Shown: positions 2,407 to 46,066 of the stretch, one piece after another
Layout of the letters: every line of letters starts with the position of its first letter
Position numbering within the stretch: position 1 is the stretch's first letter
From: Malacoraja senta
Lineage: Eukaryota
Assembly (NCBI GenBank): GCA_038087875.1
Contig: CM075995.1
Location: forward strand, 6,078,001-6,142,000
Direction: 5' to 3'
DNA length: 64,000 nucleotides
Program-made: the position numbers and the translations under genes
The notes under the pieces: generated by a model
What the model was told of the DNA's origin: nothing
What the model saw: the letters and a program-made list of their open reading frames with translations, nothing else
The model's database searches: none

Positions 2407-2768
2407 TGTTTAAGAAGGAACTGCAGATGCTGGAAAATTGAAGGTATTCGTAGAGTTGGAGGGCAGGGGGGGGGGATCACAGAGGGGGGGGGGTCACAGA
2501 GGGGGGGGATCACAGAGGGGGGGGGGGGGGGCAGTTGGAGAGGAGGTTGTGAAACTGTCTCCGGAGAGAGGAGGAGAACTTCTTCAAAGTAGGCATACCT
2601 TGAGGAGATTTCGCAGTGGAGTAGACAAAGTGTTTAAGAAGGACCTGCAGATGCTGGAAAATCGAAGGTAGTCTGAAGAAGGGTTTCGGCCCGAAACGTT
2701 GCCTATTTCCTTCGCTCCATAGATGCTGCTGCTGCACCCGCTGAGTTTCTCCAGCATTTTTGTGTACC
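2407..2768. mobile_element. Short rearranged Penelope-like insertion with hammerhead motif
   Basis: 14-bp direct repeat TTACTTAAAACATT at 2393-2406 and 2769-2782; internal repeat of tgtttaagaagga.ctgcagatgctggaaaat; segments in both orientations; same terminal sequence family as 8345, 17360, 29260 and 45947. Confidence 0.7.
2671..2702 (+). ncRNA. Minimal type I hammerhead ribozyme motif
   Basis: CTGAAGA-A-GGGT(TTCG)GCCC-GAAA-CG-TT: conserved core, 4-bp helix II, palindromic ACGT helix III. Helix I is only ~2 bp. Confidence 0.6.
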
Positions 2769-2925
2769 TTACTTAAAACATTGTTTTCCTTGTCTGCAAA
2801 ATAATTTTTAGGTCACTTTTACCATCTCGTAAGAAGTGGAAAATGTGCTGTTTGATATAACTGTCTTAACGTTCAACGTGATATTTTTGGAAGAAAATAT
2901 CTGTCTGTCTCAATGATTCCCATAG

Positions 2926-3113
2926 GCGGGCAAGGTGAGAAAGCATGTGTCTGAACAGGAGAAGACTGAAGAAGGACTCGGTCCAAATATCAAGAGTATT
3001 GTTACCATGCTGATGCTGATGTTATTAATGATGTTTGCTGTACACTGTACCTGGGTTACAAGCAATGCATACTCAAGCCCCAGCGTTGTCCTGGCATCAT
3101 ACAATCACGATGG
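2926..3113 (+). CDS. STT3B: STT3B internal coding exon (AGKVRKH...SPSVVLASYNHDG)
   Basis: Translation matches remembered vertebrate STT3B (EEGLGPNIKSIVTMLMLMLLMMFAVHCTWVTSNAYSSPSVVL). Acceptor catag| at 2925, donor |gtagga at 3114, ends in phase 2. Confidence 0.95.
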
Positions 3114-3399
3114 GTAGGAAATTAGTTTATTTCAATTATTTTTATATTTTATTAATTGATTTTTTTTCCTGGATGACATTTTGGCTTGGGTTGCGATCAA
3201 TATTTCATTAGTAGCATTAAAAAAATATAGCATTTTTATACACAAGGTATTGTTTCAAATCATTACTACCCTTGGGGATTTCTGGTATTCCAAAAAGTAA
3301 AATGGAGACATAAATTGTTAAAACTTTGTAGTTGTAAGTTAATTAAGAACATTTTGTGGAGTTAGTGGTGATGCATTCTTTACCCTTGGGATACAACTT

Positions 3400-4978
3400 T
3401 ATAACCATATAACCATATAACCATTACAGCACGGAAACAGGCCATCTCGGCCCTTCAAGTCCGTGCCGAACATTAAATAAAAAAGTTTTTTTAATTTATT
3501 TTTTTATTTTTTATTTTTTTATTTTTAAATAAATACTTCCCCCTAGTCCCATCTACCTGCACTCAGACCATAACCCTCCATTCCTTTCCCGTCCATATAC
3601 CCATCCAATCTATTTTTAAAGGATAAAATCGAACCAGCCTCTACCACTTCCACTTGAAGCTCATTCCACACAGCTACCACTCTCTTGAGTAAAGAAGTTC
3701 CCCCTAATGTTACCCCTAAACATCTGTCCCTTAATTCTCAAGTCATGTCCCCTTGTTTGAATCTTCCCTACTCTCAATGGAAAAAGCTTATCCACGTCAA
3801 CTGTCTAACCCGCTCATAATTTTAAAGACCTATCAAGTCCCCTCGTAACCTTCTGCGCTCCAAAAAATAAAGATCTAACTTGTTCAACCTTTCTCTGTAA
3901 CTTAGTTGCTGAAACCCAGGCAACATTCTAGTAAATCTCCTCTGTACTCTCTCTATTTTGTTGACATCCATCCTATAATTAGGCGACCAAAATTGTACTC
4001 CATACTCCAGAATTGGCCTCACCAATGCCTTGTACAATTTTAACATTACATCTCAACTTCTATATTCAATGCTCTGATTTATAAAGGCCAGCACCCCAAA
4101 AGCTTTCTTTACCACCCTATATACATGAGATTCCACCTTCAGGGAACTATGCACAGTTATTCCTAGATCCCTCTGTTCAACTGCATTCCTCAATTCTCTA
4201 CCATTTACCATGTACGTCCTATTTTGATTTGTCCTGCCGAGATGTAGTACCTCACATTTATCAGCATTAAACTCCATCTGCCATCTTTCAGCCCACTCTT
4301 CCTAATGGCCTACATCTCTCTGTAGACTTTGAAAATCTACTTCATTATCCACCACACCACCTATCTTAGTATCATCTGCATACTTACTAATCCAATTTTC
4401 CACACCATCATCCAGATCATTGATGTACATGACAAACAACAATGGACCCAACACAGACCCCTGAGGCACCCCACTAGTCACCGGCCTCCAACCTGACAAA
4501 CAGCCATCCACCATTACTCTCTGGCATCTCCCATTCAGCCACTGTTGAATCCATCTTGCTACTCCACCATTAATACCCAACAATTGAATCTTCTTAACCA
4601 ACCTTCCATGAAGAACCTTGTCAAAGGCCTTACTGAAGTCCATATAGACAACATCCACTGCTTTACCCGCATCAATTTCCCTAGTAACCTCTTCGAAAAA
4701 TTCTAGAAAATTAGTCAAACATGACCTTCCAGGCACAAATCCATGTTGACTGTTCCTAATCAGACCCTGCTTATCCAGATGCTTATATATATTATCTTTA
4801 AGTATCCTTTCCATTAATTTGCCCACCACTGACGTCAAACTAACAGGTCTATAATTGCTAGGTTTACTCTTAGAACCCTTTTTAAACAACGGAACAACAT
4901 GCGCAGTACGCCAATCCTCTGGCACTATCCCCGTTTCTAATGACATTTGAAATATTTCTGTCATAGCCCCTGCTATTT
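3400..4978 (-). mobile_element. CR1 subfamily 'A' 3' fragment (RT to tail)
   Basis: [18 protein letters not shown] and YADD motifs; stops and frameshifts; (TATGGTTA)n-type tail at 3400-3425. Confidence 0.92.
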
Positions 4979-5654
4979 ATGTATGGTCTTGTTCTTTCTT
5001 CTGAACATTTTATTGTCTAGCAACTTTTGGAGCAGATATGTGCCAAAAGGTAATACAAATCCATTGTATCCCTAGGGTAAGGAGTCACCCAGGATGTAAT
5101 AATTTTAAGTATCTCATGAGGTTGTAGATTAATGGAGTTATACTGCACAGAAGGAATCCCTTTGACCCAATACATCCATGCTAATCAAAACACCTATTTG
5201 AGCTAATTCTATTTGCCTGTGTTTAGGCTCTATCCTTTTCATGTTTCCAAGAGTCATACAGCATGGAAACTGGCCCTTTGGCCCAATTTGTCCATGCCAA
5301 CCAAGATGCCCCAAAGCTAGTCCTCTTTGCCTGCATTTAGTCCATATCCCTCTAACCCTTTGCTATCCAGGTATCTGTCCGAGTGTCTTAAATGTTGCTA
5401 TGTATCTATCTTAACTCCCTCATGGCAGTTCGTTTCACATACCCACTGCCCATGAATGAAAAAGTTGCCCCTCAGGTTTTTATTATATCTTTCCCCTCTC
5501 ACCATAAACCTATTCCCTCTCGTTCTTGATTTCCCCTACCCTGGATAATAGAATATTCTGTGAACTCACCCATTCAATTCCCCTTGTGATTTTATACGCC
5601 TCCATAAGATCACACCTTATCCTCCTACGCTCCAAGGAATAAAATGCTACCTTA

Positions 5655-5986
5655 TGCCCCTGTCCCACTTAGGAAACCTGAACGGAAACCTCTGGAGACT
5701 TTGCGCCCCACTCAAGGTTTCCGTGCGGTTCCTGGAGGTTTTTGTCAGTCTCCCTAATGGTCGAAAATGGTTTCCGCTTCTATGTTCCAGCGATTATTTC
5801 AAAAAATTCAAAACCGGCCGCGACTAAAAATAGGTTGCCGTTTTAAAAATCGGTAATTTTTTAGTCAAAGCTGGTTGCGATGCTAGTTGAAGGTGGTTGC
5901 CGGAGTTTGCAGGTAGTGGAAGGTCTTGGGTGGAGCGCAAAGTCTCCAGAGGTTTCCGTTCAGGTTTCCTAAGTGGGACAGGGGCA
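5655..5986. mobile_element. Non-autonomous DNA transposon (MITE), PIF/Harbinger-like
   Basis: About 60-bp near-perfect TIRs (tgcccctgtcccacttaggaaacctgaacggaaacctctggagactttgcgc) flanked by TTA and TAA; sits inside an old CR1 remnant (~5120-6070). Confidence 0.85.
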
Positions 5987-6237
5987 TAACACAATCTCCC
6001 CCTATAGTTCAGGCTCTCAAGTCCTAGCAACATCTTCGTAAATCTTCACTGTAGTCTTTCCAGCTTAATCGCATTATTTCTTATCAACGTAAATGTCTAA
6101 ATTTATTTTAAACCTTGTTTTTTTACCTGACTGCGAGCTCCTCTAGCAGGTTGTTCTGTATACCCGCCATCTTCTGTATGGGAAAACCTGCAGCTCTGAT
6201 TACTTAACATCTTTCCCCTCTCACTTTAAATCTGTAC

Positions 6238-6288
<51 letters not shown>

Positions 6289-7160
6289 GTTTTATTCGTC
6301 ACGCACATAAAGTGCAAGTGAAATGAATTTGCCAGCAGCAATGAAACAATGAACACACAAAAATGAAAAGAACACACAAAAACACAATAAAAATTCAACA
6401 CAAACATCCACCACAGCATTCATCACTGTGGTGGAAGGCACAAAATTTGGCCAGTCCTCCTCCATTTTCCCCCGTGGTCAGGACCTCAACCCTCCGGAGC
6501 CTCCGCTGCGGGCGTCCAGATGAGTAAAAGTCAAGGTAAGTCCGGAATCGGTGCCTCCCCCACCGGAGACCGCGACTTCAGGTTGGTGTAGGCCGCAGGC
6601 TGGCGGTCGAAGATTTAAAGTCAGAAGCACCGCAGACCGCAGGGCCGGCGGTCGAAGCTCCCCTCCAGGGGTCCCCGGCGAGGGGCCCCGCTCCTGATGG
6701 TAAGTCCCCGCCGCGCCCGCGGTAGAAGTTGGCCGCGGGCCGGCGGTGGGAGCTTCTTCTTCTCCCGGGTCCCCAACGAGGGATCCCAGGCTGCGGACGC
6801 CGCGCCGGCTGGCGCTCTGCAGACCGCGGCTTCAGGCTGCCGCGGGCCAGCAAATGGAGCGCTCCCCTCCGGCGAGCCCCAGCGAGAGTCCACGCTGCGC
6901 CCGCTGCTGAAGCCCCGGGCGCGTCTCCGGGAAAGGCCGCACCGATCCTCGATGTTAGGCCACGGGGGAGGCGACATGGAAAAAAACGCCTCTCCGTGCA
7001 AGAGACGACCGAAGCGGTTTCCCCCACACCACCCCCCACACAAAACACACAGAGAAACATTAAAAACATACATTTAAACACACTAAAATAATTTAAAAAG
7101 TTGAGAAAACTGACACGCTGCTGGCAGGGCTGTCGGCTTGCAGCGCCCCCACCGACCATC
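6238..7160 (-). mobile_element. GC-rich non-autonomous retroelement with (ATTG)n tail
   Basis: (TCAA)n at 6238-6288 next to a LINE-type 3' end (ttcacttgcactttatgtgcgtgacgaataaa on minus); CpG-rich body without credible ORF; splits an older repeat. Confidence 0.6.
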
Positions 7161-7893
7161 TAGTTTTCGTCTTAGATTTAGAATAGTGAAATGCCTGGGT
7201 AGAGTGGATGTGATGAGGATGTTTCCATTAGTGGGAGAGTCCAGGACTAGAGGCCATAGCCTCAGAATAGTCTGAAGATGGTGAGGCCAATTCATTGGGT
7301 ATTTTTAAAGAGCAGAATGACAGATTCTTGATTAGTAAGGGTGTCAGGGGTTATGGGGAAAAGGCAAGACGAAGGGGTTGAGAGGGAACGATAAATCAGC
7401 CACGATTGAATGATGGAGTAGACTTGATGGGCCGAATGGCCTAATTCTGCTCCTACAATTTATGAACTTCCATCCCTGGGAAAAAGTCTGTGATCTTCTA
7501 CCCCATATATACTCCTTATTTTATAAAGCATAAGGTCATAATAATTCTTGATTAGTATGGGTATCGAAGGTTACAGGGAGAAGGCAGGAGAATGGGATTG
7601 AGAGGGAAAGGTAGATCAGCCGTGATTGAATGGTGGAATGGACTTGATTGGCCAAATGGCCTAATCTGCTCCTATGTCTTTTGAAGATGAACCTCCTTTG
7701 CTGCAAGGGGAAAAGTCCCAGCTTTAGTTTAGTTTATTGTCACATATACTAAGGACTTAAAATAAAATAAATGTTGTAAACTGTTGATAGAGAGCTGTAT
7801 ACGTATTGGATTTTTGAATATTTTGAAGTTCTCTACATATCTAATTTGAAATGCATATTGGTATAATAATTTAAACATTTATTTTGAAAAAAG

Positions 7894-8065
7894 AACACGC
7901 AACATCCTCGATGACTTCCGTGAGGCATATTATTGGTTGCGACAAAATACAGATGACCATGTTCGAGTGATGTCTTGGTGGGATTACGGGTATCAGATTG
8001 CAGGAATGGCGAATCGGACAACGCTAGTAGATAATAACACGTGGAACAACAGCCATATTGCACTG
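7894..8065 (+). CDS. STT3B: STT3B coding exon containing the WWDYG motif
   Basis: [57 protein letters not shown]. First base completes the GG|A Gly codon from the previous exon; acceptor aag|, donor |gtaagt. Confidence 0.96.
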
Positions 8066-8344
8066 GTAAGTAGCCCAAGGAGCTACAGCCTGGTCCAGGG
8101 AGTTAATCTTAAGAGAAAGTGAATCTTTAGGGATGTTTACTTGTGGGAATGACATTCTTGTTTGACCCAAGTCCCCACCGTCTCAATAATAGCCATGGTT
8201 TAAAAGTAAATTGATTGGTCATTAAATATTTTGCAGTGTCTTTGTCACAAAAGGTGCTTTATATGCACGTTCATAGAATCATGGACTGCATCAGCACATT
8301 AGGAGATATTTGGCTTACTGTGTCTCATGTCGCCGGGGCTTAAA

Positions 8345-9454
8345 CGGGCACAAAATGCAGGGGTAACTCGGCAGGTCAGGCAGCATCTCTGGAAAACGTG
8401 GATAGGTGACAAGGTGTTGAGACCCTTCTTCAATCTGAAGTCTGAAGAAGGGTCTCGACCATAGTATTACATAATAGTATTCTTAATAGAGAATTGCCAT
8501 CAACAGAGGCAATTAGAGAAGACTGGGAAAAAGAATTAATGGCAAAAATTTCTAAAGAAACATGGGAAAGGTATTTGATATATATACATAAATGTTCAAT
8601 TAATGCTAGACATAATTTAATTCAATTTAAAATATTACATAGATTATATTATTCAAAAGTTAGGTTGAATAAATTGTATTCAAATATTTCTCCCATCTGT
8701 GATAAATATCTTTCTCAAAATGCCAATATCACACATTCTTTCGTTTCTTGCACAAAACTTCATGGATTTTGGTGTGATATATTTGATATATTTACTAGTT
8801 TATTTAAGATAAAAATGGAACCTAATATGGAAATTATTATCTTCGGAGTAATAGGAGATGGAAACAAATTAAATATATCCCAAATTTCATTTTTTAATTA
8901 TGGTTTAATAACAGCAAAAAAACTCATACTTAAATTTAGGAAAAATGCTAATATACCAACACTCAAAATGTGGATTGGTAATATGTTGGAAACTGCCCAC
9001 TTGGAAGAAATGAGACTCCTCCTAATAGACAAACAAGACTAATTCTTAACGAGTTGGTCTCCATTTATTGACCTTTTGGATTCATGTGGTGCAATAGTAT
9101 CGTAAAATTAAAAATTCTGGGTTTGGGCAAAAAATGATTAAGAATATAAAAAAGCATCGACTTGTGGCGAGGGAGAATCTCCTTTCTGCTTCACTTTCTT
9201 ACTTATTTCTTTTCTTTACCTCACACTCACTAGACTTTCCTTTACTCTTCACTACTTCTTTCTTTCTCATTTCTTTCTAAAAAAAAAGGAAGTTGTACAA
9301 AGAATGTTATAATAATTCTGGGAACCTGTAAAAAGGTACCATCAAAATATAATGTACTTCTAATAAATAAAAACATTAAAAAAAAAAGAAGGGTCTCGAC
9401 CAGAAACGTTAACTGTCCATGTTCTCCAGAGGTGCCGCCTAACCTGCTGAGTTA
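8345..9454. mobile_element. Penelope-like inverted (palindromic) insertion, interrupted; right arm resumes at 16211
   Basis: Minus arm 8345-8432 (gacccttcttca) followed by plus arm tctgaagaagggtctcgacc; continues 9386-9454 and 16211-16225 (gagtta|ctccagcattttg). Confidence 0.7.
8462..9385 (+). mobile_element. L1-clade LINE 3' fragment
   Basis: ORF 8494-9042 resembles the L1 ORF2 C-terminal zinc-finger region (IQFKILHRLY...C...HSFVSC); AATAAA plus poly(A) tail; 17-bp TSD AAGAAGGGTCTCGACCA at 8445-8461 and 9386-9402. Confidence 0.85.
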
Positions 9455-16212: not shown

Positions 16213-17359
16213 CCAGCATTTTGTTTACTCTTGTATATTAACCAGTTTTTTATTTCTACATGTCGTCAGGGCATGGATGGTCAGCAAGGCTTCCTTTGTA
16301 TGAAACCCTATCATGCCAATTTAGTTGTTTTTGGGTGGAGTTTTTAGACAGTGGTCGAAATCTGGCATGCTCTGGTGAGAGATGGAGGTAGAGGCAGGTA
16401 CTCTCACACATGCAAGAAATATCTCGAGAAGCATTGTTCTTCAATATAGTTATCCAATTAGTTTCCTTCTTTCCGCGTGGTCTTGCAAAAAATATCCTTT
16501 ACATGAGCTTGCTTTCTTTTGAATGATGTTATTGAATTTGCTTGGCCCATCTTTTTATGCACCATTCTAATAATCAGCATTACTAATTAAAGAAATGTGC
16601 ATCGTTTTCGTTCATTGTGATTGTGGGTACAGTTTCCACTTGCTCAGTTCCGAGAGGAACAATCCAACTTTTGCCTAGTCACTTCATTCAAGAATTATTC
16701 TTGTTTGTCCTATAAGCAAGTCCTATTGAATCATCTCTATTTAATCTCTAGTACTGGTTTAGGTTTGTTAATGTCACGTGTACCGAGGTACAGTGGAAGA
16801 TTTTCAGAGGAACATACAGCATTTTTGCACGCTATCCAATCAGATCAAACAATACTGTACATAAATACAACCAAACTCAAGCGCAATAGCTAGAGCAAAG
16901 GAGAAGATACAAAGTGCAAAATATAGTTCTCAGTAGCACATGACTGTTGTTATAGTGCAACAATAAACCGGATACACAGTGCCTTTTTAACAACACAGGT
17001 TGGCACACATCCATCAATAGATCCATATTATTGAATTGGCTTTAAAATTTATAGTTTTAAATAATTAAACCAATTTAAATAAAGTTGACTCTCCATATTC
17101 ATCCTACTAAAGTAAATCATTTCACACATCCCTTCAGTGAATGTCACCTGCCAAGTCTACCGGTTTACCTCCTGCTGAAGTGGTTGCTGCCCACCACTTA
17201 CAAGCTTCACGCCATTTGTAAACTTGATAAATATGTACTTTATCCCAAAGTCCATTTTGTTATTATCCATTGAAATGGGTAACTGTTTTCCAACACCAGA
17301 TCATGAGCAAAATTACACCCCCCTATCCTTCCATATCTCCAAACACCTTCTCCCCTTAC

Positions 17360-17497
17360 TCTCAGTCTTAAGAAGGGTCTTGACCCGAAAAGTCACTCAT
17401 TCCTTCTCTCCAGAGATGCTGCCTGTCCCGCTAAGTTACTTCTGCATTTTGTGTCTGTCTCCGGTGTAAACCAGCATCTTCAGTTCCTTCCTACACA
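17360..17497 (+). mobile_element. Penelope-like terminal repeat with degenerate hammerhead core
   Basis: cttaagaagggtcttgacccgaaaagtc...ccagcatcttcagttccttcctacaca; same family as 29260 and 45947. Confidence 0.7.
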
Positions 17498-22790: not shown

Positions 22791-25700
22791 AAGAAAAAAA
22801 ATAACCGTCATCTTTTATCCAATTCTAACATGATGCACAAATTTATGTCTGCATGCGTGGTTTAATTGTAGCTTTGCGCTGTGCCTGACAACTATTACCA
22901 TATAACCATAACAGCACGGAAACAGGCCATCTCGGCCCTTCAAGTCCGTGCCGAACACTTTTTTTTTAAACTTCCCCCTAGTCCCATCAACCTGCACTCA
23001 GACCATAACCCTCCATTCCTTTCCCGTCCATATACCCATCCAATCTATTATTAAAGGATAAAATCGAACCTGCCTCCACCACTTCTACTGGAAGCTCATT
23101 CCACAGAGCTCCAACTCTCTGAGTAAAGAAGTTCCCCCTCATGTTACCCCTAAACTTCTGTCCCTTAATTCTCAAGTCATGTCCCCTTGTTTGAATCTTC
23201 CCTACTCTCAATGGGAAAAGCTTATCCACGTCCACTCTGTCTAACCGGCTCATAATTTTAAAGACCTCTATCAAGTCCCCTCTTAACCTTCTGCGCTCCA
23301 AAGAATAAAGACCTAACTTGTTCAACCTTTCTCTGTAACTTAGTTGCTGAAACCCAGGCCACATTCTAGTAAATCTCCTCTGTACTCTCTCTATTTTGTT
23401 GACATCCTTCCTATAATTAGGCAACCAAAATTGTACTCCATACTCCAGAATTGGCCTCACCAATCCCTTGTACAATTTTAACATTACATCCCAACTTCTA
23501 TATTCAATGCTCTGATTTATAAAGGCCAGCACACCAAAAGCTTTCTTTACCACCCTATCTACATGAGATTCCACCTTCAGGGAACTATGCACAGTTATTC
23601 CTAGATCACTCTGGTCAACTGCATTCCTCAATTCGCTACCATTTACCATGTACGTCCTATTTTGATTTGTCCTGCCGAGATGTAGCACCTCACATTTATC
23701 AGCATTAAACTCCATCTGCCATCTTTCAGCCCACTCTTCCAAATGGCCTAAATCTCTCTGTAGACTTTGAAAATCTACTTCATTATCCACAACACCACCT
23801 ATCTTAGTATCATCTGCATACTTACTAATCCAATTTTCCACACCATCATCCAGATCATTGATGTACATGACAAACAACAGTGGACCCAACACAGACCCCT
23901 GAGGCACCCCACTAGTCACCGGCCTCCAACCTGACAAACAGCCATCCACCATTACTCTCTGGCATCTCCCATTCAGCCACTGTTGAATCCATCTTGCAAC
24001 TCCACCATTAATACCCAACAATTGAATCTTCTTAACCAACCTTCCATGAGGAACCTTGTCAAAGGCCTTACTGAAGTCCATATAGACAACATCCACTGCT
24101 TTACCCTCATCAATTTCCCTAGTAACCTCTTCGAAAAATTCAAGAAGATTAGTCAAACATGACCTTCCAGGCACAAATCCATGTTGACTGTTCCTGATCA
24201 GACCCGGCTTATCCAGATGCTTATATATATTATCTTTAAGTATCCTTTCCATTAATTTGCCCACCACTGACGTCAAACTAACAGGTCTATAATTGCTAGG
24301 TTTACTCTTAGAACCCTTTTTAAACAACGGAACAACATGCGCAGTACGCCAATCCTCCGGCACTATTCCCGTTTCTAATGACATTTGAAATATTTCTGTC
24401 ATAGCCCCTGCTATTCCTACACTAACTTCCCTCAATGTCCTAGGGAATATCCTGTCAGGACCTGGAGACTTATCCGTTTTCATATTTTTCAAAAGTGTCC
24501 GCACTTCCTCTTCTTTGAATCTCACAGTTTCCATTGCTACTCTGCTTGTTTCCCTTACCTCACATAATTCCATATCCTTCTCCTTGGTGAATACCAAAGA
24601 AAATAAATTGTTCAATATCTCCCCCATCTCTTTTGGCTCTGCAGATAGCTGTCCACTCTGACTCTCTAATGGACCAATTGTATTCCTTGTGATCCTTTTG
24701 CTATTAATATAGCTGTAGAAACCCTTTGGATTTACTTTCAACTTACTTGCCAAAGCAACCTCATATCTTTTAGCTTTTCTAATTTCTTTCTTAATATTCT
24801 TTTTACATTCTTTATACTCCTCAAGCACCTCATTTACTCCATGCTGCCTATAATTATTGTAGATCTCTCTCTTTTTCCGAACCGTCCAATTTCCCTTGAA
24901 AACCATGGCTCTTTCCAATTTTTACTATTTCCTTTCAACCGAACAGGGACATAAAGATTCTGCACTCTTAAAATGTCACCCTTAAATATCCTCCGTTTCT
25001 CTTCTACATCCTTCCCATAAAACAACATGTCCCAATTCACTCCTTTTAAATCCTTCTGCATCTCCTCAAAGTTAGCCTTTCTCCAATCAAAAATCTCAAC
25101 CCTAGGTCCAGTTCTGACCCTCTCCATAATTATATTGAAACTAATGGTATTGTGATCACTGGACCCGAAGTGCTCCCGGACGCATACCTCCGCCACCTGC
25201 CCTGTCTCATTTCCTAACAGGAGGTCCAGCACTGGCCCTTCTCTAGTAGGTACCTCTATGTATTGCTGCAAAAAACTATCCTGCACACATTTTACAAACT
25301 CCAAACCATCCAGCCCTTTTACAGAATGTGTTTCCCAGTCTATGTGTGGAAAATTGAAATCTCCCACAATCACTACCTTGTGCTTACTACTAATATCTGC
25401 TATCTCCTTACATATTTGCTCTTCCAATTCTTGCTTCCCATTTGGCGGTCTATAATACACCCCTATAAGTGTTGCTACACCTTTCCCATTTCTCAGTTCC
25501 ACCCAAATAGCCTCCCGAGACGAGCCCTCTAATCTATCCTGCCAAAGCACTGCTGTAATATCTTCCTTGACAAGCAATGCAATACCCCCACCTCTTGCCC
25601 CTCCAATTCTATCACCCCTAAAGCAACGAAATCCTGGAATATATAGTTTCCAATCACAGCCCTCCTTCAACCATGTTTCACTGATCGCCACAACATCATA

Positions 25701-25922
25701 CTTCCAGGTGTCAATCCAGGCTCTAAGCTCATCCACCTTTCTTACAATGCTCCTAGCATTAAAATATACACATTTAAGAAACCCACCACCACTTATTCGA
25801 TGTTTATTATCTTTTTCTTCTTTCTCCCCTACATTTTGGGTCTGAGTGCTTCCCTTCTCTGCCTCCTGCCTCCCACATTTTCTGCTAGCTTTCTCTATTT
25901 TAGTCCCCCCCCCCCAACCGTT

Positions 25923-26855
25923 CTAGTTTAAAGTCTCCCCAGTAGCCTTTGCAAATCTCCCCGCCATGATATTGGTCCCCCTCGGGTTCAAGTGCAACCC
26001 GTCCTTTCTGTACAGGTCACACCTTCCCCAAAAGAGGTCCCAATGATCCAGAAATTTGAATCCCTGCCCGCTGCACCAGTTCCTCAGCCACGCATTTATC
26101 CTCCATCTCATTCCATTCCTACTCTCACTGTCGCGGGGCACAGGTAGTAATCCTGAGATTGTTACCTTTGCGGTCCTCCTTAACGCTCCTCCCAACTCCC
26201 AAAATTCTCCTTTCAGGACCTCTTCTCTTTTTCTGCCTATGTCATTGGTACCTATATGTACCACAACCTCAGGCTCCTCTCCCTCCGATTTCAGGATATC
26301 TTGGACACGTTCAGACACATCCCTGACCCTGGCACCAGGGAGGCAAACTACCACCCGGGTCTCCTGACTGCACCCACAGAATCGCCTCTCCGACCCCCTA
26401 ACCATAGAGTCCCCTATTACTATTGCCCTCCTCTTCTTTTCCCTACCCTTCTGAGCAACAGGGCCGGTCTCTGTGCCGGAGGCCCGGCTGCTGTCGCAAC
26501 CCCCAGAAAGGCTGTCCCCCCCAACAGTACTCAAACAGGAGTACTTATTTTCAAGGTGTACAGCCACCGGGGTACTCACTAGTCCCTGCCTCTGCCCCTT
26601 GCCCTTCCTAACCGTGACCCACTTGTCTGCCTCCCGTGGTCTTGGAGTGGCCACCTCCCTATAACTCCTCTCTATGACCTCCTCACTCTCCCTGATCAGA
26701 CAGAGGTCATCAAGCTGCTGCTCCAGGTTCCTAACACGGTCCCTTAGGAACCCCATCTCGACGCTCCTGGCACAGATGTGGACGTCTGGAGGGGTATCAG
26801 ACTCCATGACCTCCCACATCTGACATCCAGAACAGTAAACTGCCCTGGCCCTCAT
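25923..26855 (-). CDS. CR1 ORF1p: N-terminal Cys/coiled-coil region plus SGNH/GDSL esterase
   Basis: CxxC, LEQQLDDL, GDSMVRG, HIGTND and DGLHLN motifs; ATG start. Confidence 0.85.
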   Translation of the reverse strand: MRARAVYCSGCQMWEVMESDTPPDVHICARSVEMGFLRDRVRNLEQQLDDLCLIRESEEVIERSYREVATPRPREADKWVTVRKGKGQRQGLVSTPVAVHLENKYSCLSTVGGDSLSGGCDSSRASGTETGPVAQKGREKKRRAIVIGDSMVRGSERRFCGCSQETRVVVCLPGARVRDVSERVQDILKSEGEEPEVVVHIGTNDIGRKREEVLKGEFWELGGALRRTAKVTISGLLPVPRDSESRNGMRWRINAWLRNWCSGQGFKFLDHWDLFWGRCDLYRKDGLHLNPRGTNIMAGRFAKATGETLN

Positions 26856-27061
26856 TCTCCCCCCTTACCCTGGATACAATACAAAGCCTTACCCTGGATA
26901 TAATACAAACTGGTGGAGGAAATCAGCAGGGATCTGACTCCCAATCAGCTGCTTCCTCTTAGTCCTCTTCCACCAATCAGCTGCTTCCTCTTAGTCCTCT
27001 TCCACCAATCAGTGGCTTCCTCACTTATATGAAACGTGAATGCAATGTTGCAGTTTGGGGT

Positions 27062-27293
27062 TCCTCCTCCTGCAACGGTCCCTGGGCCTCTGGAAAGTAA
27101 AGCCCGCGCCGCTCCTCCTGCAACAGTCCCTGGGCCTCTGGAAAGCAAAGCCCCGCGCCGTTTATCTACTCACCACCTGGACGCCGCTCCTCCTCCTGCA
27201 ACGGTCCCTGGGCCTCTGGAAAGTAAAGCTCCGCGCCGTTTATCTACTCACCACCCGGACGCCGCTCCTCCTGCAACGGTCCCTGGGCCTCTG
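27062..27293 (-). repeat. Tandem CpG-rich 5' monomers of CR1-A (periods 48, 78, 75)
   Basis: tgcaac(g/a)gtccctgggcctctg recurs at 27071, 27119, 27197 and 27272. Confidence 0.9.
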
Positions 27294-27980: not shown

Positions 27981-29257
27981 TAAGGCAAGCAAGATCCCAC
28001 CTACACCAGCTCCAAAACTGTGGACATTGTTTAATACTGGGTTATAACTCGTCCACATAACCTTAGGTTAATTCATATTGTCCAGTTTGAGTTTAGTTTA
28101 TTGTCGAGTGTACTGAGTTACAGAGAAAAGCTTTTGTTGCGTGCTAACCAGTTAGCAGCAAGACAATCCACGATTACAATCGAGCCAAACACAGTGTACA
28201 GTGATAAAGGGAATAACGTAAATAACGTTTAGTGCAAGATAAAGTTTAGTATAGTCCGATCAAAGATAGTCTGAATGTCTCCAAGGAGGTAGATAGTAGC
28301 TCAGGACTGCTCTCTAGTTACTGGTAGCATGGTTCAGTTGCCTGATAACAGCTGAGAAGAAATTGCCCCTGAATCTGGAGATATGCATTTTCACATTTCA
28401 ATACATTTTGCCCGATGGAAGAGGGGAGAAGAGGGGGGCGACTCGTCCTTGATTATGCTGCTGGCTTTGCCGAGGCAGCATGAGGTGTAAATGGAGTCAA
28501 TGGAAGTGAAGGTGGTTTGTGTGATGGTCTAACTGTTGGCAATAATTTGTGTTTATAAATAACCATTAACATTGTAAAACGCCCGAGTATTTCACAAGAG
28601 TGTTAGGGGAATCTTCGTCAAAGGGATGAATTCTATGGAGCATCTTAGAGGAGAGAGAGAGACGGAAAAGGTTAGGGAGGCAACTCCAGGGAGCCAAAGG
28701 CCCAGTGACCGATGGTGGAATGCCTACAGAAGACCTGAAGTGGAAGAATCACAAGATGACACAACTGGAGAAGATTTTAGCATATAAAGTGCCCTTGAAG
28801 GTATTTGATTATGAAGAAATTCATGTGGAATTAATGGCCTGAAGCAGTGCTGGGCAGGTGTGCTGCATTTTCTGCATGGCTCTCCATCTCTGAACAGCTA
28901 TCGGGAGATGAATATCAGGTCAGGTTCCCCCCCCCCACCAGAAGTTGAACCATTGTTCTCATTATGGAAAACTTGACATGCAGTTGAGTTGTGACTTGGG
29001 ATCTTGTCACATTGGTAACGCAAACTGGTCTTTTCTGTTTGAATGTTTGCGATGAGTATCAGTAGGTACGTTTATTTTCAATATATGACTCTTAATAGTA
29101 TTCTGAGTTTCTTCTCCTAATCACCTGCTCATGCTCATTCTGGGAATCCCTTGGAGATACTGAGTAAGCATAATTTTATAACCAGAGCAACTGAGATCAG
29201 TGTGCTGGGAAACCTGTTCGCAATTCGTTATGATTTAAACAAAAAGTAAAAGTGCTT

Positions 29258-29912
29258 CTGTAGGAAGGAACTGCAGATGCTGGTTTACACCGAAGATAGA
29301 CACAAAATGCTGGAGTAACTCAGCGGGACAGGCAGCATCTCTGGAGAGAAGGAATACGTGATGTTTCAAGTCAAGATCTCTGAAGAAGGGTCTCGAACCG
29401 AAACGCCTCTCATTCTTTCTCTCCATAGATACTGCATGTTCCACTGAGTTAAGGGCCTGTCCCACGAGCATGCGACTGCATGCGGCAAGCTCGACCTAAC
29501 GTGGTCGCTTGAGCCGTACGGCCTCGCGGGGCCGGTCCCACTTCGATCGCCGGAGCTGTATGGAGTTGTGCTCCGCAAAACTGACTGTTCAAACATTCCG
29601 CGCGGCAATGGCCTGCCGGGCCGCAGCCGCCTCGACACCATACGCACCGCCTCGACGGGCGTACGCAGCGTCTTGACGCCGTACGTCACGAGCGAACTTC
29701 GTTCGAACTTCACGTCACGAACGAACTTCACTCGAACTTCACGTCACTCACTCGACCTCCGCGCGGCCCCCGCTTCCGGTTTGGTCGTGCTTGCCGCATG
29801 CAGTCGCATGCTGGTGGGACCGGCCCTGTACGGGGATCACTCGACCTCCGCGCGGCCCCCGCTTCCGGTTTCGTCGCGCTTGCCGTATGCTCGTGGGACA
29901 GGCCCTTTACTC
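29258..29912. mobile_element. Penelope-like palindromic insertion interrupted by a MITE
   Basis: 14-bp TSD AAGTAAAAGTGCTT at 29244-29257 and 29913-29926; inverted arms; degenerate hammerhead core at 29380-29407. Confidence 0.75.
29452..29906. mobile_element. PIF/Harbinger-type MITE
   Basis: TIR AGGGCCTGTCCCACGAGCAT; TTA TSD at 29449-29451 and 29907-29909; CpG-rich; internal duplication of the right subterminal region. Confidence 0.88.
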
Positions 29913-31132
29913 AAGTAAAAGTGCTTACTGCACAGTGCTGCCATTCTCACTGTCTTTCGGAGAGGCTTTCCTAGTCATGAAAGCCTCAGATTCTTACCTT
30001 GAGACATTTAGTTCTTAGCAGGAACACTTTTAAACAACTCAGAACTAGGATTAGATGTGAGTACGATTCTATTTAACTGAGTTTTTGAAAAGCCTGCAGC
30101 AGTTCTCGGGGTAGCTGTACTCATTGCCGCTCCTAGGAGCTTACTGCAAGGAAACCCTTTGAGATGAAGCAGAATTTATTTTCTAGTTAAATAAGCAGAA
30201 ATCTTACTTAACTGGAAATTGATTCTGGTTCATCTCAGCACTGAAGAGGCAGCCTATTAGCATGTAAAGTAATTTATTAAGTGTCATTACTCCTGAACTG
30301 CTGAGTGATTCTGTTTTTCCACTCCCACTGAAACACCAGGAATGAATCAGAGTTCACCCGCTCTGTGAGATTTCTGCTTTGGAGTGAAACTCCTACGGTC
30401 CTGTCTCAATCATCCTACCATTATCATGTTGCCACTCACACAACCAGTGATGATTTTCAGCACTTGAAATGAAAACTTCTTTTTTTTTTAAAGGCTTTTT
30501 TTTGTTTGCAAGCGTGTAATCGGTTCTGCATCTTGGGGGAGTGGATGGTAGGGGGGAGGTTGTAAGCAGAGGATGCATTTCTGAACTTTAAATTTACTAA
30601 CTTTTGAAACACCCAGTTTCTTCTGCAGGCAAATGAGCAACTGACACTAGGAGTTGGTAACATTACCAGTAGAAACATTGTGATCATGCTGAACTGCCAG
30701 ACATCTTCCCTAAAACAATGGTAGACCAATTCAAACCAAACAGCAATTGACAAGTTATTTTGCAAGAAAGATTACCAATTGCAATTTTAGCAGACGTGTT
30801 GTAGAATGTATAGAATACTCCTGGATGTCCTGGTTTTCCAATTAGGAAACAGGTATATTTGGAGAGTACAAAAACTCCTGGTTCCACAATAATACCTTGA
30901 GATTCCCTCTGCCAGTCCCACACAGCACCACGTGCCCACAGTCCAAGCACCAGTCATTGCTTTTCCCATTCTCAGCTGAATCTGTGCCAGCCAACATTCC
31001 TCAGTTGCTGAGCTGTTTTTCAACTCCCTGCTGCAATCAAATAGGGTGCTGTGAGAGAGAAATGGCAAGAGCTCATCAGTAATTGGCACAGCCTCACAGC
31101 AAGAATTTACAGACTTTGCTGATTCTGATTAT

Positions 31133-36892: not shown

Positions 36893-37192
36893 TTTAGTTT
36901 AAAGATACAGCGCGGAAACAGGCCCTTCATCCCACCAAGTCCGCGCCAACCAGCGATCCCCGCACAATAACACTATCCTACACACACTAGGGACAATTTA
37001 CAATTATACCAAGCCAATTAACCTACAAACCTGTATGTTTTTGGAGTGTGGAAACCAGAGATCCTGAAGAAAACCCACGCAGGTCACGGGGAGAACGTGC
37101 AAACTCCATAGAGACAGGCGCCATAGTTAAGATTGAACCTGGGTCTCTGGCGCTGTAAGGCAGCAACTCTACCGCTGCGCCATTGCCACCCT
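36893..37192 (-). mobile_element. tRNA-derived SINE (HE1/V-SINE-like)
   Basis: Reverse complement of the 18659-18960 family with A/B boxes and tail. Confidence 0.85.
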
Positions 37193-39639: not shown

Positions 39640-40005
39640 GCCTGGACTCGAGGGCCTGACCCATAGGGAGAGGTTGCACAGGCTAGGACATTATTCCTTG
39701 GAGCGCATAATTAATGAGGAGTGATCTTATAGAGGTGCAATAGGTTTAAGGTGAGAGGCAAAAGATTTGATAGGATCCCAAGGGACAACCATTTTTTTTA
39801 CACAAAGGGTGGTGAGTATATGGAACGAGCAGCCAGAGGAGGTAGTTGAGGCAAATACTATCATAATATTTAAAAGACATTTGGACAGGTACATGGATAG
39901 AATAGGTTTAGAAGGATATGGGCCAAAGGCAGGCAGGTGGGACTAGTGTAGATGGGGCATGTTGGTCAGCAGGTTGGGCCGAAGGGCCTGTTTCTATGGT
40001 GTATG
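39640..40005 (+). mobile_element. Old CR1 3' fragment
   Basis: Degenerate ORF2 end followed by a gggccgaagggcctgtttc terminus. Confidence 0.7.
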
Positions 40006-40144
40006 ATGACGACTCTTGGTGCAACTCTTTTCTGATGTGGAAATTCTTCTTGCCTCATTCTGAAATGGCCAGCCATTTGCCATGAGACTATGCCTATTTT
40101 TCTAGACTAGCTAGCCTTGACCTTATGGAATTCCATCTAGTTGT

Positions 40145-40672
40145 AGAATAAGAGGGGGCTCTTTTAAAACTGAGATGAGGAAGAACTTCTTCACCCAGAG
40201 GGTGGTTAATTTATGGAATTCACTGCCCCAGGGAGCAGTGGAAGCAGAAACATTAAATATATTTAAGTCTAAAATAGATGGTTTTTTAGCTGCCAAGGGG
40301 ATAAGGGGCTACGGGGAGAGGGCAGGGATATGGACCTAGGTATGGTTAGTATAGTAAGACCTGAGTGATCTCCTGGACAAGTGTCGATCGCCTGGATTGG
40401 GGTCGGAGAGGAATTTCCCGGATTTTTTTCCCGAATTGGACCTGGGTTTTTATCCGTTTTTTGGCCTCCCCCAGGAGATCACGCGGTTCTTGGGGTGGAG
40501 AGGGGTGATAGCGATATAAAGGGGAGGGTAGTGTCTTGTGTTCTGTGTCTTGTGTCTACTGTTTGTGGGTAAGGGTGTCTGTTTAGTGTTCAGCCATGAG
40601 CGAATGGCGGTGCGGGCTCGATGGGCCTGGTGGTCTACTCTCGCACCTACTTTCTATGTTTCTATGTTTCTA
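40145..40672 (+). mobile_element. CR1 3' fragment with extended 3' UTR
   Basis: EMRKNFFTQRVVNLWNSLP-type end; (CTATGTTT)n tail; extra ~250 nt in the UTR. Confidence 0.75.
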
Positions 40673-41467
40673 TTCCTAAAGACTTCTCTCCTGAAAGAGC
40701 TTCTACTGTGAGAGTATTAGGACTGCCCCGGCCCTCTAGTTATGTATATCTGCCTTCTTCCAAATTTCAGAAGAGTATATGGCAAGACCATCCCACCACT
40801 TCCCCCAGTCATTCTTGAATTAATTCAGTGACTCTCAGCTGCACTGCGCCAGGGACAAGTATATTCTTTCTTATGCTTGGATACTGGATCTGAACAAAAT
40901 GCTTCAAAGAGGTGTCATCCAAGAGCTTTACAATTGCGGCATGACCTCCTTACTTTCACAGTTCACGGCCCTTGTAGTAATGATCAACACACCACTCTCC
41001 GCCTTTGTACCTCCTCTTTGTATGAACCAGCACCATGCGATCCCACTGTATATCAACAATCACTAGTTTCTGAACAATAAAAAAATGTTTTTTTCTATTC
41101 TTACCACTGAAGTAAACATCAGCACAACTTAAATATCGTATTGTATTACAACCTGATCAGAATACACAAAGGCACTGCTGACATTTTACTGGAATCCACA
41201 AACAAATCCAAAAATTAATCCCTTTGGAAAATAATTTTACTATGAAATTCAGTGACAAACCTACCTCAATACTTGCTGTGAATCCAAATTTTCACTCTGT
41301 GTGATCAGTTGGTTTTCTCAAGGAAATTATTTCCCCTAAATTAGAAAGCATATTATCTAACATGGTGAAGAATTGCAGAGCTCTGAAATGGAGGGTTCTT
41401 GAGCATAGTTTGAAAAAGGCTAGTAGGTTTGTACTGTAAATGATTAGGGAAGCTAATCAGATGTTAT

Positions 41468-44046
41468 AGCAGTAGTAGTGAAGTTGGGGATGGCATCAAA
41501 CAGGAAATTAGAAATGCGTGCAACAAAGGCAAAACAGTTATAATGGGTGACTTCAATCTACATATAGATTGGGTGAATCAAATTGGCAGGGGTGCTGAGG
41601 AAAAGGATTTCTTGGAATGTATGAGGGATAGTTGTCTAAACCAACATGTAGAGGAACCAACGAGAGAGCAGGCTATTCTAGACTGGGTATTGAGTAATGA
41701 GGAAGGGTTAGTTAGCGGACTTGTTGTGCGTGCCCCCTTGGGCAAGAGTGACCATAATATGGTTGAGTTCTTCATTAGGATGGAGAGTGACATTGTTAAT
41801 TCAGAAACAACGGTTCTGAACTTAAAGAAAGTTAACTTTGAGGGTATGAGACGTGAATTGGCCAAGATTGACTGGCAATTAGTTCTAAATGGGTTGACGG
41901 TGGATATGCAATGGAAGGCATTTAAAGACTGCATGGATGAACTACAAAAAATGTTCATCCCAGTTTGGCAAAAGAATAAATCAGGGAAGGTAGTGCATCC
42001 GTGGATAACAAGGGAAATCAGGGATAGTATCAAAGCAAAAGATGTTGCGTACAAATTAGCCAGAAAAAGCAGCATACCAGAGGACTGGGAGAAATTCAGA
42101 GACCAGCAGAGGAGGACAAAGGGCTTAATTAGGAAAGGGAAAATAGATTATGAAAGGAAACTGGCAGGGAACATAAAAACTGACTGCAAAAGTTTTTATA
42201 GATATGTGAAGAGAAAGAGATTAGTTAAAACAAATGTAGGTCCCTTGCAGTCAGAAACAGGTGAATTGATCATGGGGAACAAGGCTATGACGGACCAATT
42301 GAATAACTACTTTGGTTCCGTCTTCACTAAGGAAGACATAAATAATCTGCCGGAAATAGCAGGGGGCCGCGGGTCAAAGGAGATGGAGGAACTGAGTGAA
42401 ATCCAGGTTAGTCGGGAAGTGGTGTTGGGTAAATTGAATGGATTAAAGGCCGATAAATCACCAGGGCCAGATAGGCTGCATCCCAGAGTACTTAAGGAAG
42501 TAGCTCCAGAAATAGTGGATGCATTAGTGATAATTTTTCAAAATTCTTTAGATTCTGGAGTAGTTCCTGAGGATTGGAGGGTAGCAAACGTAACCCCACT
42601 TTTTAAGAAGGGAGGGAGAGAGAAAACGGGGAATTACAGACCAGTTAGTCTAACATCGGTAGTGGGGAAACTGCTAGAGTCAGTTATTAAAGATGGGATA
42701 GCAGCACATTTGGAAAGTGGTGAAATCATTGGACAAAGTCAGCATGGATTTACGAAAGGTAAATCGTGTCTGACGAATCTTATAGAATTTTTCGAGGATG
42801 TAACTAGTAGAGTGGATAGGGGAGAACCAGTGGATGTGTTGTATCTGGACTTTCAGAAGGCTTTCGACAAGGTACCACATAAGAGATTAGGATACAAACT
42901 TAAATCACACGGTATTGGGGGTTCAATATTGATGTGGATAGAGAACTGGCTGGCAAACAGGAAGCAAAGAGTAGGAGTAAACGGGTCCTTTTCACAATGG
43001 CAGGCAGTGACTAGTGGGGTACCGCAAGGCTCAGTGCTGGGACCCCAGCTATTTACAATTTATATTAATGATCTGGACGAGGGAATTGAAAGCAACATCT
43101 CCAAGTTTGCGGATGACACTAAGCTGGGGGGCAGTGTTAGCTGTGAGGAGGATGCTAGGAGACTGCAAGGTGACTTGGATAGGCTGGGTGAGTGGGCAAA
43201 TGTTTGGCAGATGCAGTATAATGTGGATAAATGTGAGGTTATCCACTTTGGTGGCAAAAACGGGAAGGCAGACTATTATCTAAATGGTGGCCGATTAGGA
43301 AATGGGGAGGTGCAGCGAGACCTGGGTGTCATGGTACACCAGTCATTGAAAGTAGGCATGCAGGTGCAGCAGGCAGTGAAGAAAGCGAATGGTATGTTGG
43401 CCTTCATAGCAAGAGGATTTGAGTATAGGAGCAGGGAGGTTCTACTGCAGTTGTACAGGGTCTTGGTGAGACCACACCTGGAGTATTGCGTACAGTTTTG
43501 GTCTCCAAATCTGAGGAAGGACATTATAACCATAGAGGGAGTGCAGAGAAGGTTCACCAGACTGATTCCTGGGATGTCAGGACTTTCATATGAAGAAAGA
43601 CTGGATAGACTTGGCTTATACTCGCTAGAATTTAGGAGATTGAGAGGGGATCTTATAGAAACGTACAAAATTCTTGTGGGGTTGGACAGGCTAGATGCAG
43701 GAAGATTGTTCCCGATGTTGGGGAAGTCCAGGACAAGGGGTCACAGCTTAAGGATAAGGGGGAAATCCTTTAAGACCGAGATGAGGAAAAACTTTTTCAC
43801 ACAGAGAGTGGTGAATCTCTGGAACTCTCTGCCACAGAGGGTAGTTGAGGCCAGTTCATTGGCTATATTTAAGAGGGAGTTAGATGTGGCCCTTGTGGCT
43901 AAAGGGATCAGGGGGTATGGAGAGAAGGCAGGTACGGGATACTGAGTTGGATGATCAGCCATGATCATATTGAATGGCGGTGCAGGCTCGAAGGGCCGAA
44001 TGGCCTACTCCTGCACCTATTTTCTATGTATCTATGTATCTATGTA
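41468..44046 (+). mobile_element. Young 5'-truncated CR1 subfamily 'B' with uninterrupted 800-aa ORF2 remnant
   Basis: ORF 41543-43945 is open; (CTATGTAT)n tail; nested in an old CR1 remnant (~41340-44600). Confidence 0.95.
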
Positions 44047-45399
44047 TTTATTAAGGGGAATTCAATATAAAGGTTGGGAAGATGTGCTTCACCTAGAGAA
44101 GACGTTGGCGAGATCACATCTAGAGTGCTGTGTGCAGTATAGATCCCCATAAATTATTAAGATTGTTGATGTGCTGCAAGTAGCTCAGAGAAGCATTACT
44201 TGGCTGACATGTGAAATGGACAGGTTGTCCGATGAAGAGTGATTGAACAGGCTAGGCCTGTTTCTGCTGAAATTCAGGCAAGTGAAAGGTGACTTGAAGC
44301 ATAAGATCCTGAGGAGTCTTGACAGGGTTTTGTGGAAAGGATGTTTCCTTTAGTGGGAGAATCTTGAACCAGAGGGTCACTGGTTAAAACAAAAGGGAAT
44401 GCTTGTTTAAGACAAAGGCTTTTCTCTCAGAGGAACACATGTTTTCAGAACTCTCACTCACAGATCAAAGGAAGCAAAGTCTTTGAAGGTGTTTAAGGCG
44501 GAGATCGATAGATTCTTGATAACCTTTCACACTTGATTACCAGGGAGAGGCAGGAATGCAGAGTTGTGGTTACAGTTAGGAGTAGGCTGAGTGGCCTACT
44601 AAATTATGTTTATATGAAATCAGGTGCTCTGAAACAAAGTGCATAAGTTTGTTAACTACTGGAATATATATCCACTATGTGTGGGTGCTGCATTGCGGAA
44701 GCCAATGACGTGATAGTGCTATCAAGACGAGTTGGTGATTTGCTGGTGTTTAGATAACAGAATTGGTAAAGTGTCTAATGGATGCAAAAGCAAAAGGAGG
44801 TCTACAGGTGGAATAATTTTGTGACTAGCTACAAATTGGAATAATTTTGTGACTAGCTACAAATTGCATATCAAGTAAAGTATGTAGAAGAGATGCAAAA
44901 TAAATGTATCATCATTTTGCTTTTACAAAAAGGACAAAAGATCAATCATATTTCCCCTTATTGTACCTCTAAAATTCTGAATGTGGGATGACAATATTGG
45001 GTTTATTACAATATCATTCTTTTCAAATAATTCTCATTTTGTAATTGATTAGTGAATCTCTATCCCATGTAGAAACCAAAAGGCCTTTCTGATTAGCCTT
45101 TAGGAACTATAAAGTTGAGTCTCATTATCCAAACTACAAGGTACAAATAAGGTACAAATAGTTGTGTTTCTCAGCACTAATCTCAGATTTTCTTTACAAA
45201 ACGCCATTCATTCTGACTAGTTTTAGAAACAGACTAGGTGTAATAATTTAACTTTTGTAAGCGATGGAAATCACTGCAGTAAAAAGTGTTCTATGTGCCC
45301 CGTGGTACTGAATACTATAGGGTTTATGCAATGGCATGCCCATTAACCAAATCAAAACAGTCCTACATCATTTAGTTCACAAAGATATCTTAAAGTGAC

Positions 45400-45740
45400 T
45401 ACACCAATGGCACATTTATTTGTTTAAGTGCAAAAAACCCTTTGCAAGTGAAAAATATAAAATCTTAAAACATTAAAATAAAATTTCTTCATTATCAACT
45501 TTTCAATCTCTTGTATGCAGATCTCATTGAATACAGGACAACACCTGAATACATTTATTTTCATGAACCTGCAAGTATTTTTAATTTGGTACTCAATATT
45601 GTTTCTATTTTTTATACATAACATTGTCACGCATTTGCCTTTTTAATTTTCTTTTCAACATCACCTCAGAGTTATTTGCAGATGGCAAATCGCTAATTGG
45701 AGGATACCCGAGGTAGCTGGTGGAGGTCAATTTGAGTCTG
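45400..45740 (-). other. OSBPL10: Probable OSBPL10 3' UTR (minimum extent)
   Basis: Minus-strand AATAAA at 45559-45554 and 45420-45415; another at 45007-45002. The true end is unknown. Confidence 0.45.
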
Positions 45741-45788
45741 TCAGTAGTGTGCCTTCCAGATGGGATTAGAGTACACCCAACCATCTCC
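45741..45788 (-). CDS. OSBPL10: OSBPL10 final coding exon (GDGWVYSNPIWKAHY*)
   Basis: Translated by hand; acceptor ataacag|; resembles the mammalian GDGWVYFNPLWKAH terminus; TGA at 45743-45741. Confidence 0.92.
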   Translation of the reverse strand, partial: GDGWVYSNPIWKAHY

Positions 45789-45946
45789 CTGTTATGGAAT
45801 AGGAAAAAGTGGTTAATTCATTACCACAACCAGTTTGAAAGGACACAATATACCTTGTTCTTAAAGTGCAATAACAGAAGAAATTTAAAGATATTTCTTG
45901 ATGGATAGAAGGACAGATCATCCAAGTGCAACAAGGCTACAAATTG

Positions 45947-46066
45947 TGTAGGAAGGAAAGACGCAAACGAGTCTGAAGAAGGGTCTCGACCCGAAACGTC
46001 GCCCATTCCTTCTCTCCAGAGACACTGTCTCTGCTGAGTTACTCCACTATTTTGTGCCTATCTTCG
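45947..46066 (+). mobile_element. 120-bp Penelope-like insertion
   Basis: 13-bp TSD AGGCT(A/G)CAAATTG at 45934-45946 and 46067-46079; short inverted 5' piece (tgtaggaagga). Confidence 0.75.
45971..46002 (+). ncRNA. Minimal type I hammerhead ribozyme motif
   Basis: CTGAAGA-A-GGGT(CTCG)ACCC-GAAA-CG-TC; GUC triplet ends at 46000. Confidence 0.62.

Follow-up and report, generated by a model that had tools for sequence, protein, structure and literature searches.

Hammerhead motifs and insertions in the window

We analysed 64,000 nucleotides of the Malacoraja senta genome (GenBank assembly GCA_038087875.1, contig CM075995.1, positions 6,078,001 to 6,142,000, forward strand; this whole stretch is called the window), which carries short, scattered pieces of a Penelope-like element (PLE) with a minimal hammerhead ribozyme motif. 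An earlier reading made from the letters alone (the sequence-only reading) had reported that the motif recurs throughout the window. Inspection confirms the recurrence, with the motif or a remnant of it at every site, but not the intactness, as the whole motif is found at only two of eight sites (2673 and 45973). A DNA profile hidden Markov model (HMM) recovers eight pieces in the window and none on the reversed sequence. An Rfam scan of the window gave no hammerhead family match at E <= 1 and only one chance match.

The two intact motifs are on the forward strand. The motif at 2673..2700 belongs to a young subfamily and has C3 at 2673, a 4-bp helix II with a UUCG loop, a palindromic ACGU and a predicted cut after 2700. 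The motif at 45973..46000 belongs to a subfamily with a CUCG loop. Other sites are decayed. An old head of the element's pseudo-long terminal repeat (pLTR) at 1599..1651 (-; motif 1649; HMM E 0.0015) has a core broken at G8 and G12, and the inverted arm of a head-to-head insertion at 8349..8432 (-; motif 8433) has a decayed core (HMM and core inspection). The copy at 17324..17497 (+, HMM) has a head with an upstream pLTR part and the optional 3′ tail; its motif (17367) is changed at G5, and its upstream part aligns to a locus (L099) that carries a GIY-YIG end. The motif at 29380 has a changed U16.1 and a helix II mismatch. An old copy at 50790..51020 (+; motif 50993) has lost the 3′ half of the core and falls under the HMM threshold, and its upstream pLTR part still aligns to several loci at 66-77%. 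Positions 8442 and 9386, read before as separate copies, are one direct head (8439..9453, +; the head is 8439-8461 plus 9386-9453) split by the roughly 0.9-kb 3′ end of an element resembling a long interspersed nuclear element (LINE) at 8462-9385. This LINE-like piece has a poly(A), a 17-bp duplication of ribozyme sequence (8445-8461 = 9386-9402) and a zf-RVT match (E 0.0014, under the curated cut-off).

Three insertions are flanked by target-site duplications (TSDs) and contain inverted arms, as had been claimed; two TSDs are exact over 14 bp and one is 13 bp with one mismatch. In insertion A, the left TSD (2393..2406, +) is identical to the right one (2769..2782, +). The inverted arm between them (2407..2669, -) consists of the tail and 5′ body pieces of the coding element described below, in three template-switched segments (2407-2446, 2448-2472 and 2502-2670) that align inverted to L065:2842-3020 with 89-100% identity. 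It is followed by a direct pLTR head of the young subfamily (2670..2768, +; 96% identical to L065:2750-2847), which begins 3 nt upstream of the hammerhead core and stops at the first of two fixed 3′ ends. Insertion B (29244..29926, +) has exact 14-bp TSDs (29244-29257/29913-29926), an inverted arm with tail (29259-29379) and a direct arm (about 29378 to 29912). It is long because a 455-bp miniature inverted-repeat transposable element is nested inside (29452..29906; terminal inverted repeats, TTA duplication); this is unrelated to the Penelope element and presumably of the PIF/Harbinger type. Insertion C (45934..46079, +) has 13-bp TSDs with one mismatch (45934-45946/46067-46079), an inverted remnant (45947-45969) and a direct head (45970-46066) that also begins 3 nt upstream of the core. 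A TSD of 12 nt with one mismatch was reached by 5 of 3000 random flank pairs. Among short copies, 41 of 60 have a TSD of at least 9 nt, compared with 3 of 60 controls (range 9-21 nt, mode 14 nt).

A coding Penelope-like element in the same genome

The repeats, 95-130 nt long, are almost certainly pLTR heads of endonuclease-bearing PLEs. Longer copies extend upstream into the C-terminus of a GIY-YIG endonuclease, and in every subfamily tested the motif of these copies lies 84-276 nt downstream of that C-terminus, which upholds the suggested Penelope origin. The linked reverse transcriptase (RT) and GIY-YIG open reading frame (ORF) that had been proposed as a check was also found. One locus (L061) encodes an uninterrupted 1,222-codon RT and GIY-YIG frame. 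Another (L065) has the order pLTR-ORF-pLTR, with a hammerhead in both direct repeats (2481-2858 and 6550-6927, 98.4% identical) and a frameshift in the ORF. In a protein search of the genome, all 112 matches listed have 97-100% identity and no internal stop, with open frames of up to 1,224 codons. For biochemistry, a young element that seems to be intact is available.

The ORF has about 1,200 codons overall, with a long proline-rich N-terminal part. The protein matches RVT_1 (E 6.5e-6) and GIY-YIG (E 0.0015), both just under the curated cut-offs in Pfam, and its translations contain a DKG motif and a CX4CxxC linker before the endonuclease. A homologue search gave 1,160 sequences at E <= 0.001 among 7,987 scored, and among named homologues the nearest come from sharks and rays (65-73% identity), which points to a probable elasmobranch host. 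The coding ends of the CUCG-loop subfamilies are separate and more diverged (52-84% identity).

The motif is very abundant in the genome. A tight 27-nt pattern has 43,873 exact matches (none for the reversed control), and an open minimal hammerhead core has 109,514 (735 for the control pattern). In 39 evenly spaced 10-kb genome samples (390 kb) the HMM found 138 pieces. Extrapolated to the whole genome, this gives some 690,000 pieces that make up 2.9% of the DNA. The window, with 8 pieces in 64 kb, is poorer than this average, contrary to the dense local spread that had been proposed. Tandem tRNA-gene arrays (Ala, Arg) with a period of about 2-2.45 kb contain a Penelope head in each unit (L200, G000:C1:3869501-3879500; L216, G000:C1:4007001-4017000); these heads were amplified passively along with the array. 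Two places (L110, G000:C1:703465-703492; C1:736943-736970) contain a divergent variant of the core, whose 14-nt spacer lacks the usual helix II; it may be another, older family.

The sequence-only reading had taken the pieces for a mostly non-coding Penelope derivative that has spread densely here. Such a derivative could be a non-autonomous short interspersed nuclear element (SINE) or retrozyme family, driven by the ribozyme and propagated from short master copies. The very high copy number is in keeping with such a family, as are tandem arrays of heads in other parts of the genome; some of these repeat the core in each unit (L252) and fit the published definition of a non-LTR retrozyme. However, the window copies are single, and the pieces of insertion A are 89-100% identical to the coding element. 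Flanks and 5′ ends vary by copy, with no shared 5′ leader or fixed internal deletion, and array junctions are private. Most motifs are broken: 57 of 130 sampled pieces span the core, of which 22 keep the core and 9 the whole motif. Each subfamily has its own coding 3′ end, and therefore the stubs are pieces of several coding families and form no independent non-coding family. We consider a SINE or retrozyme family highly doubtful, and for the window copies it is largely refuted.

Ends of the short copies

New here is that young-subfamily copies begin sharply 3-4 nt upstream of the ribozyme. Counting positions with C3 as 0, young copies have two fixed 3′ ends, at about +94 (clustered at +92-96) and at +124 to +130 (clustered at +124-132). 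The 5′ ends are bimodal: among 80 young copies picked by an anchor downstream of the ribozyme, the 5′ end is at -6..0 in 21, at +1..+19 in 28 and beyond -100 in 14, and none begins at -12..-7 (six scored at -29..-37 are alignment breaks in a pyrimidine tract, not true ends). The cut site is retained in 73 of the 80, so the copied template was mostly uncut. Genome-wide counts of starts, made with patterns that force four mismatches before the start, are 21 at -8, 306 at -4, 586 at -3, 60 at +25, 123 at +28 and 68 at +33; corrected for the filter, they are 56, 1,072, 2,052, 216, 555 and 219. BLAST-based mapping of 5′ ends in mixed subfamilies gives the same pile-up, at a noise level that does not allow claims on individual bases. 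Contigs of two other organisms likewise contain loose ends before the -3 position, next to unrelated flanks. The edge at -3/-4 falls on TCAGT, which we take to be initiator-like. An initiator-like word has been noted in a rotifer pLTR (PMC3846280; this and the other papers below are cited from portions of their text).

Some loci run from the tail into the 5′ body of the element. Of the 62 such loci behind the first 100 of 474 places, 25 jump back to the head, and nine of these, with 10 junctions in all, resume at -3/-4, in several cases behind an A-rich run (the apparent restarts in L323, L326, L328 and L334 come from breaks of the alignment in the pyrimidine tract). At 7 of the 10 junctions there is an extra G without counterpart in the element (binomial p 0.006). 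An extra G is the usual mark of an RT reading a cap, as established for LINE-1. Together, the sharp 5′ edge and the extra G at restarts point to a capped transcript start.

We consider it fairly probable that the stubs are run-off copies, made from two internal RT starts to the RNA 5′ end 3-4 nt upstream of the hammerhead. The -3/-4 edge would be a capped transcription start at the initiator-like TCAGT. RT that starts at +94 or +129 near the capped 5′ end would run off and leave a stub of 95-135 nt, and RT that starts in the 3′ pLTR would give the long copies. Each stub would be a fresh dead-end product of the RNA and protein of the coding element, and not a self-propagating SINE. The ribozyme, as the first 31 nt of the transcript, would be mostly misfolded and uncut in the copied RNA; it may cut a small minority, probably with help from the protein or as a dimer. 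The two 3′ ends bracket the tail, a two-site pattern that is tied to internal RT initiation in the anole element, where RT starts at both tail ends and uses uncut RNA in vitro (PMC11167929).

Several observations weigh against run-off from a capped end. The 5′ ends scatter over -6..+19 instead of sharing one base, and about a quarter of young copies reach far upstream, as ordinary 5′-truncated copies do. In hand counts of dispersed copies, an extra G precedes 39 of the first 100 copies that start at -3, where about 27 are expected and microhomology with the inverted arm explains 16, and 18 of the first 100 that start at -4. A stem-loop or C-rich tract could stall RT at the same place. The copies would then be ordinary 5′-truncated ones from the 3′ pLTR, in which RT stalls or switches template at the structured hammerhead or at the C-rich tract just upstream. 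The scatter of ends fits stalling, with a second pile at +10 where GUUUCG and CGAAAC pair and inverted arms join, and so does the weak extra G in dispersed copies; most PLE insertions are also described as 5′-truncated in the text drawn on from Li et al. (bioRxiv 10.64898/2026.07.22.740005). We nevertheless consider stalling the less likely, if serious, alternative, given the 37-fold drop from -3 to -8, the extra G and A-rich runs at restart junctions, and the arms built of 5′-body sequence, which indicate that the template extended into the sequence 3′ of the 5′ pLTR.

In all subfamilies here, the core is preceded by a pyrimidine tract and CAG. A different layout, which also counts against run-off, is known from the Drosophila virilis Penelope, where transcription starts 46 nt before an intron that stops at the hammerhead, at helix I (PMC2377424; PMC4209133). 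The edge could accordingly be a 3′ splice site, with spliced RNA copied and a short first exon lost or unrecognised. However, no genomic copy joins a stop-proximal donor to the core (one donor was tried), the sequence upstream of the edge varies by copy, and AG or CAG is kept in copies although splicing would remove it. No GT-AG skip was found among the 15 joints listed, of 46, from four contig sets that are possibly RNA-derived, and these contigs are uninformative on starts or expression. Splicing is very improbable as the source of the edge. Taken as a whole, the explanation that we favour, with moderate confidence, combines pLTR heads of a coding element, run-off at the RNA 5′ end and a mostly uncut ribozyme.

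Ribozyme structure and predicted fold

The sequence-only reading was right to recognise a Penelope-type minimal type I hammerhead. The CUGANGA...GAAA...UH core, helix II and the palindromic 15.2-16.2 are present at 2673, at 45973 and in all intact coding copies, as in the published examples (PMC4209133). There is an extra base after A9 and a G-C closing pair, and the palindromic ACGU replaces helix III. Helix I has only two pairs (U-A/G, G-C), with an A-C mismatch at the third position, short of the 4-5 bp of the usual definition. Pairing in helix II is kept across variants as had been claimed, though it does not amount to covariation, since the change is one-sided (U-A to U-G); no two-sided compensatory change was found among the common helix II pairs of the 57 spanning copies.

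Between subfamily majorities the core varies in 1 of 11 columns and the tail in 15 of 61 (ribozyme versus tail, p 0.38). Non-CpG mismatch is 6.2% versus 9-10% (p 0.001-0.007), a difference confounded by unresolved subfamilies. In ViennaRNA the probability of helix II is near zero in the monomer because GUUUCG pairs with CGAAAC. The active fold is not favoured in the ViennaRNA monomer or co-fold, and the ACGU duplex is worth only -1.7 kcal/mol. Published minimal hammerheads cleave weakly as dimers (PMC4209133) or need the protein of the element (PMC11167929), and one of nine Xenopus dimers is cut in vitro (Li et al.).

In the predicted fold of L065:2750-2882, the first bases of the head pair with the end of the tail and the ribozyme is masked. 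This fold would place the apparent transcript start beside the second RT start, and by eye it is only partly conserved in other subfamilies.

Hints of cleavage and tandem arrays

The motif probably cuts only rarely. Of the 25 restart loci, 16 begin elsewhere than at -3/-4, and two of these (L251 and L248, with one ambiguous base in L248) begin at +28, directly 3′ of the predicted cut; each is a perfect tandem array. The chance of two such restarts is 0.01-0.02, a rough estimate made by hand after seeing the data. Genome-wide starts at the cut are in 2.5-fold excess (123 raw matches). Many of the 30 inspected are microhomology deletions or fold-back joints, and because microhomology inflates the count, the excess is an upper bound. 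These observations hint at, but do not prove, rare cleavage by the ribozyme in vivo, in less than 2% of young copies. The role of these ribozymes has been called unclear (PMC8557442), and no RNA ends at the cut were reported in the portions covered of the anole study (PMC11167929).

Ribozyme-less arrays with units that begin directly 3′ of the predicted cut have ten identical 138-bp units (L251), three identical 165-bp units (L248) and five copies of 61-62 bp (L297). L297 is not independent, as it was found by a search for such starts. Retrozyme-like arrays, with a core in most or all units and ending at Penelope 3′ ends, have 13 units of 384 bp (L252) or units of about 275 bp (L247) and 254 bp (L249). 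The sequences are compatible with three origins of the +28 arrays: a circle, repeated jumps, or unequal crossing-over at a later time.

A wider reading, which we hold tentatively and rate at less than an even chance, is that the fossil copies map a life cycle: a capped, ribozyme-first transcript, run-off stubs (about 3% of the genome), and an uncapped cut product joined head to tail or re-jumped into perfect tandem arrays that start at the cut. Were this so, the copies would attest that minimal Penelope hammerheads are active in vivo, and would directly show how retrozyme-like arrays arise while a Penelope RNA is being reverse-transcribed. The near-identical young copies number tens of thousands, and their insertion ends supply positions at which the transcript start, both RT starts and the cut can be tested.

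Other features of the window

Many LINE copies take up much of the window, at 1-1602, 3407-4978, 22893-27212, 41444-46000, 51241-55508 and elsewhere. Their RT frames are long, their ORF1 is a GDSL esterase (Pfam Lipase_GDSL_2), and we take them to be CR1-like. An 84-bp tandem repeat (3.1 copies) lies inside open frames at 61371-61628. An exon-like frame at 59523-59948 (-) had no match in Pfam and PDB searches, and we assume from its resemblance that it may belong to an oxysterol-binding-protein-like gene. If it is such an exon, the two intact hammerheads would be antisense to the host transcript.

Comparison with known systems

The structure, insertion marks and ribozyme all match described endonuclease-bearing (EN+) PLEs. 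As in the minimal type I hammerheads of metazoan PLEs (PMC4209133), we find the same core, the extra base between A9 and G10.1, the G10.1-C11.1 pair and a palindromic 15.2-16.2 without loop 3, with motifs in both pLTRs and masses of single motifs from truncated elements. Different here are the 4-bp helix II and a helix I of only 2 bp, the latter as in their D. virilis variant. Their counts are about 9,000 in Xenopus tropicalis and 4,000 in coelacanth, compared with about 109,000 cores here. Shark or skate terms are absent from the text portions and two supplementary files of that work that were scanned. Our literature search, which took in sources other than Repbase, Dfam and bioRxiv supplements, found no paper on a Penelope hammerhead family of sharks, skates or rays; Li et al. 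do cover one chondrichthyan.

The coding element resembles Neptune and Nematis EN+ PLEs (PMC8557442) in its single ORF with RT and C-terminal GIY-YIG, its DKG motif and its pLTRs. It also shares an adjacent inverted 5′-truncated arm, an optional 30-40-bp tail and the CX2-5CxxC linker (here CX4CxxC), which is common to both clades. It differs in its long proline-rich N-terminal part, and the clade likeness comes from motifs, not from a tree. In the Anolis Poseidon element PAc (PMC11167929), too, RT initiates at two sites 3′ of the hammerhead, one on either side of the tail, and uncut RNA is the main template. PAc differs in belonging to the Poseidon clade and in having an ORF that begins within the ribozyme. 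The parts of that study used here report no reads that end at the cut and give no position for the transcript start, whereas the genomic copies here mark the 5′ edge and in a few cases begin at the cut.

Animal non-LTR retrozymes (PMC7229834; Li et al.) are also pLTR-derived, and some arrays in this genome have a hammerhead in each unit as they do. The window copies differ in being single heads, not tandem units, and their ribozyme is of the minimal and not the canonical form. Li et al. suggest that terminal repeats are amplified locally; in this genome, several arrays restart at the apparent RNA 5′ end or at the cut, a pattern that suggests they arose in the course of reverse transcription. 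Penelope hammerheads and scattered stubs are thus already known, and what is added here is the scale and the mapping of ends.

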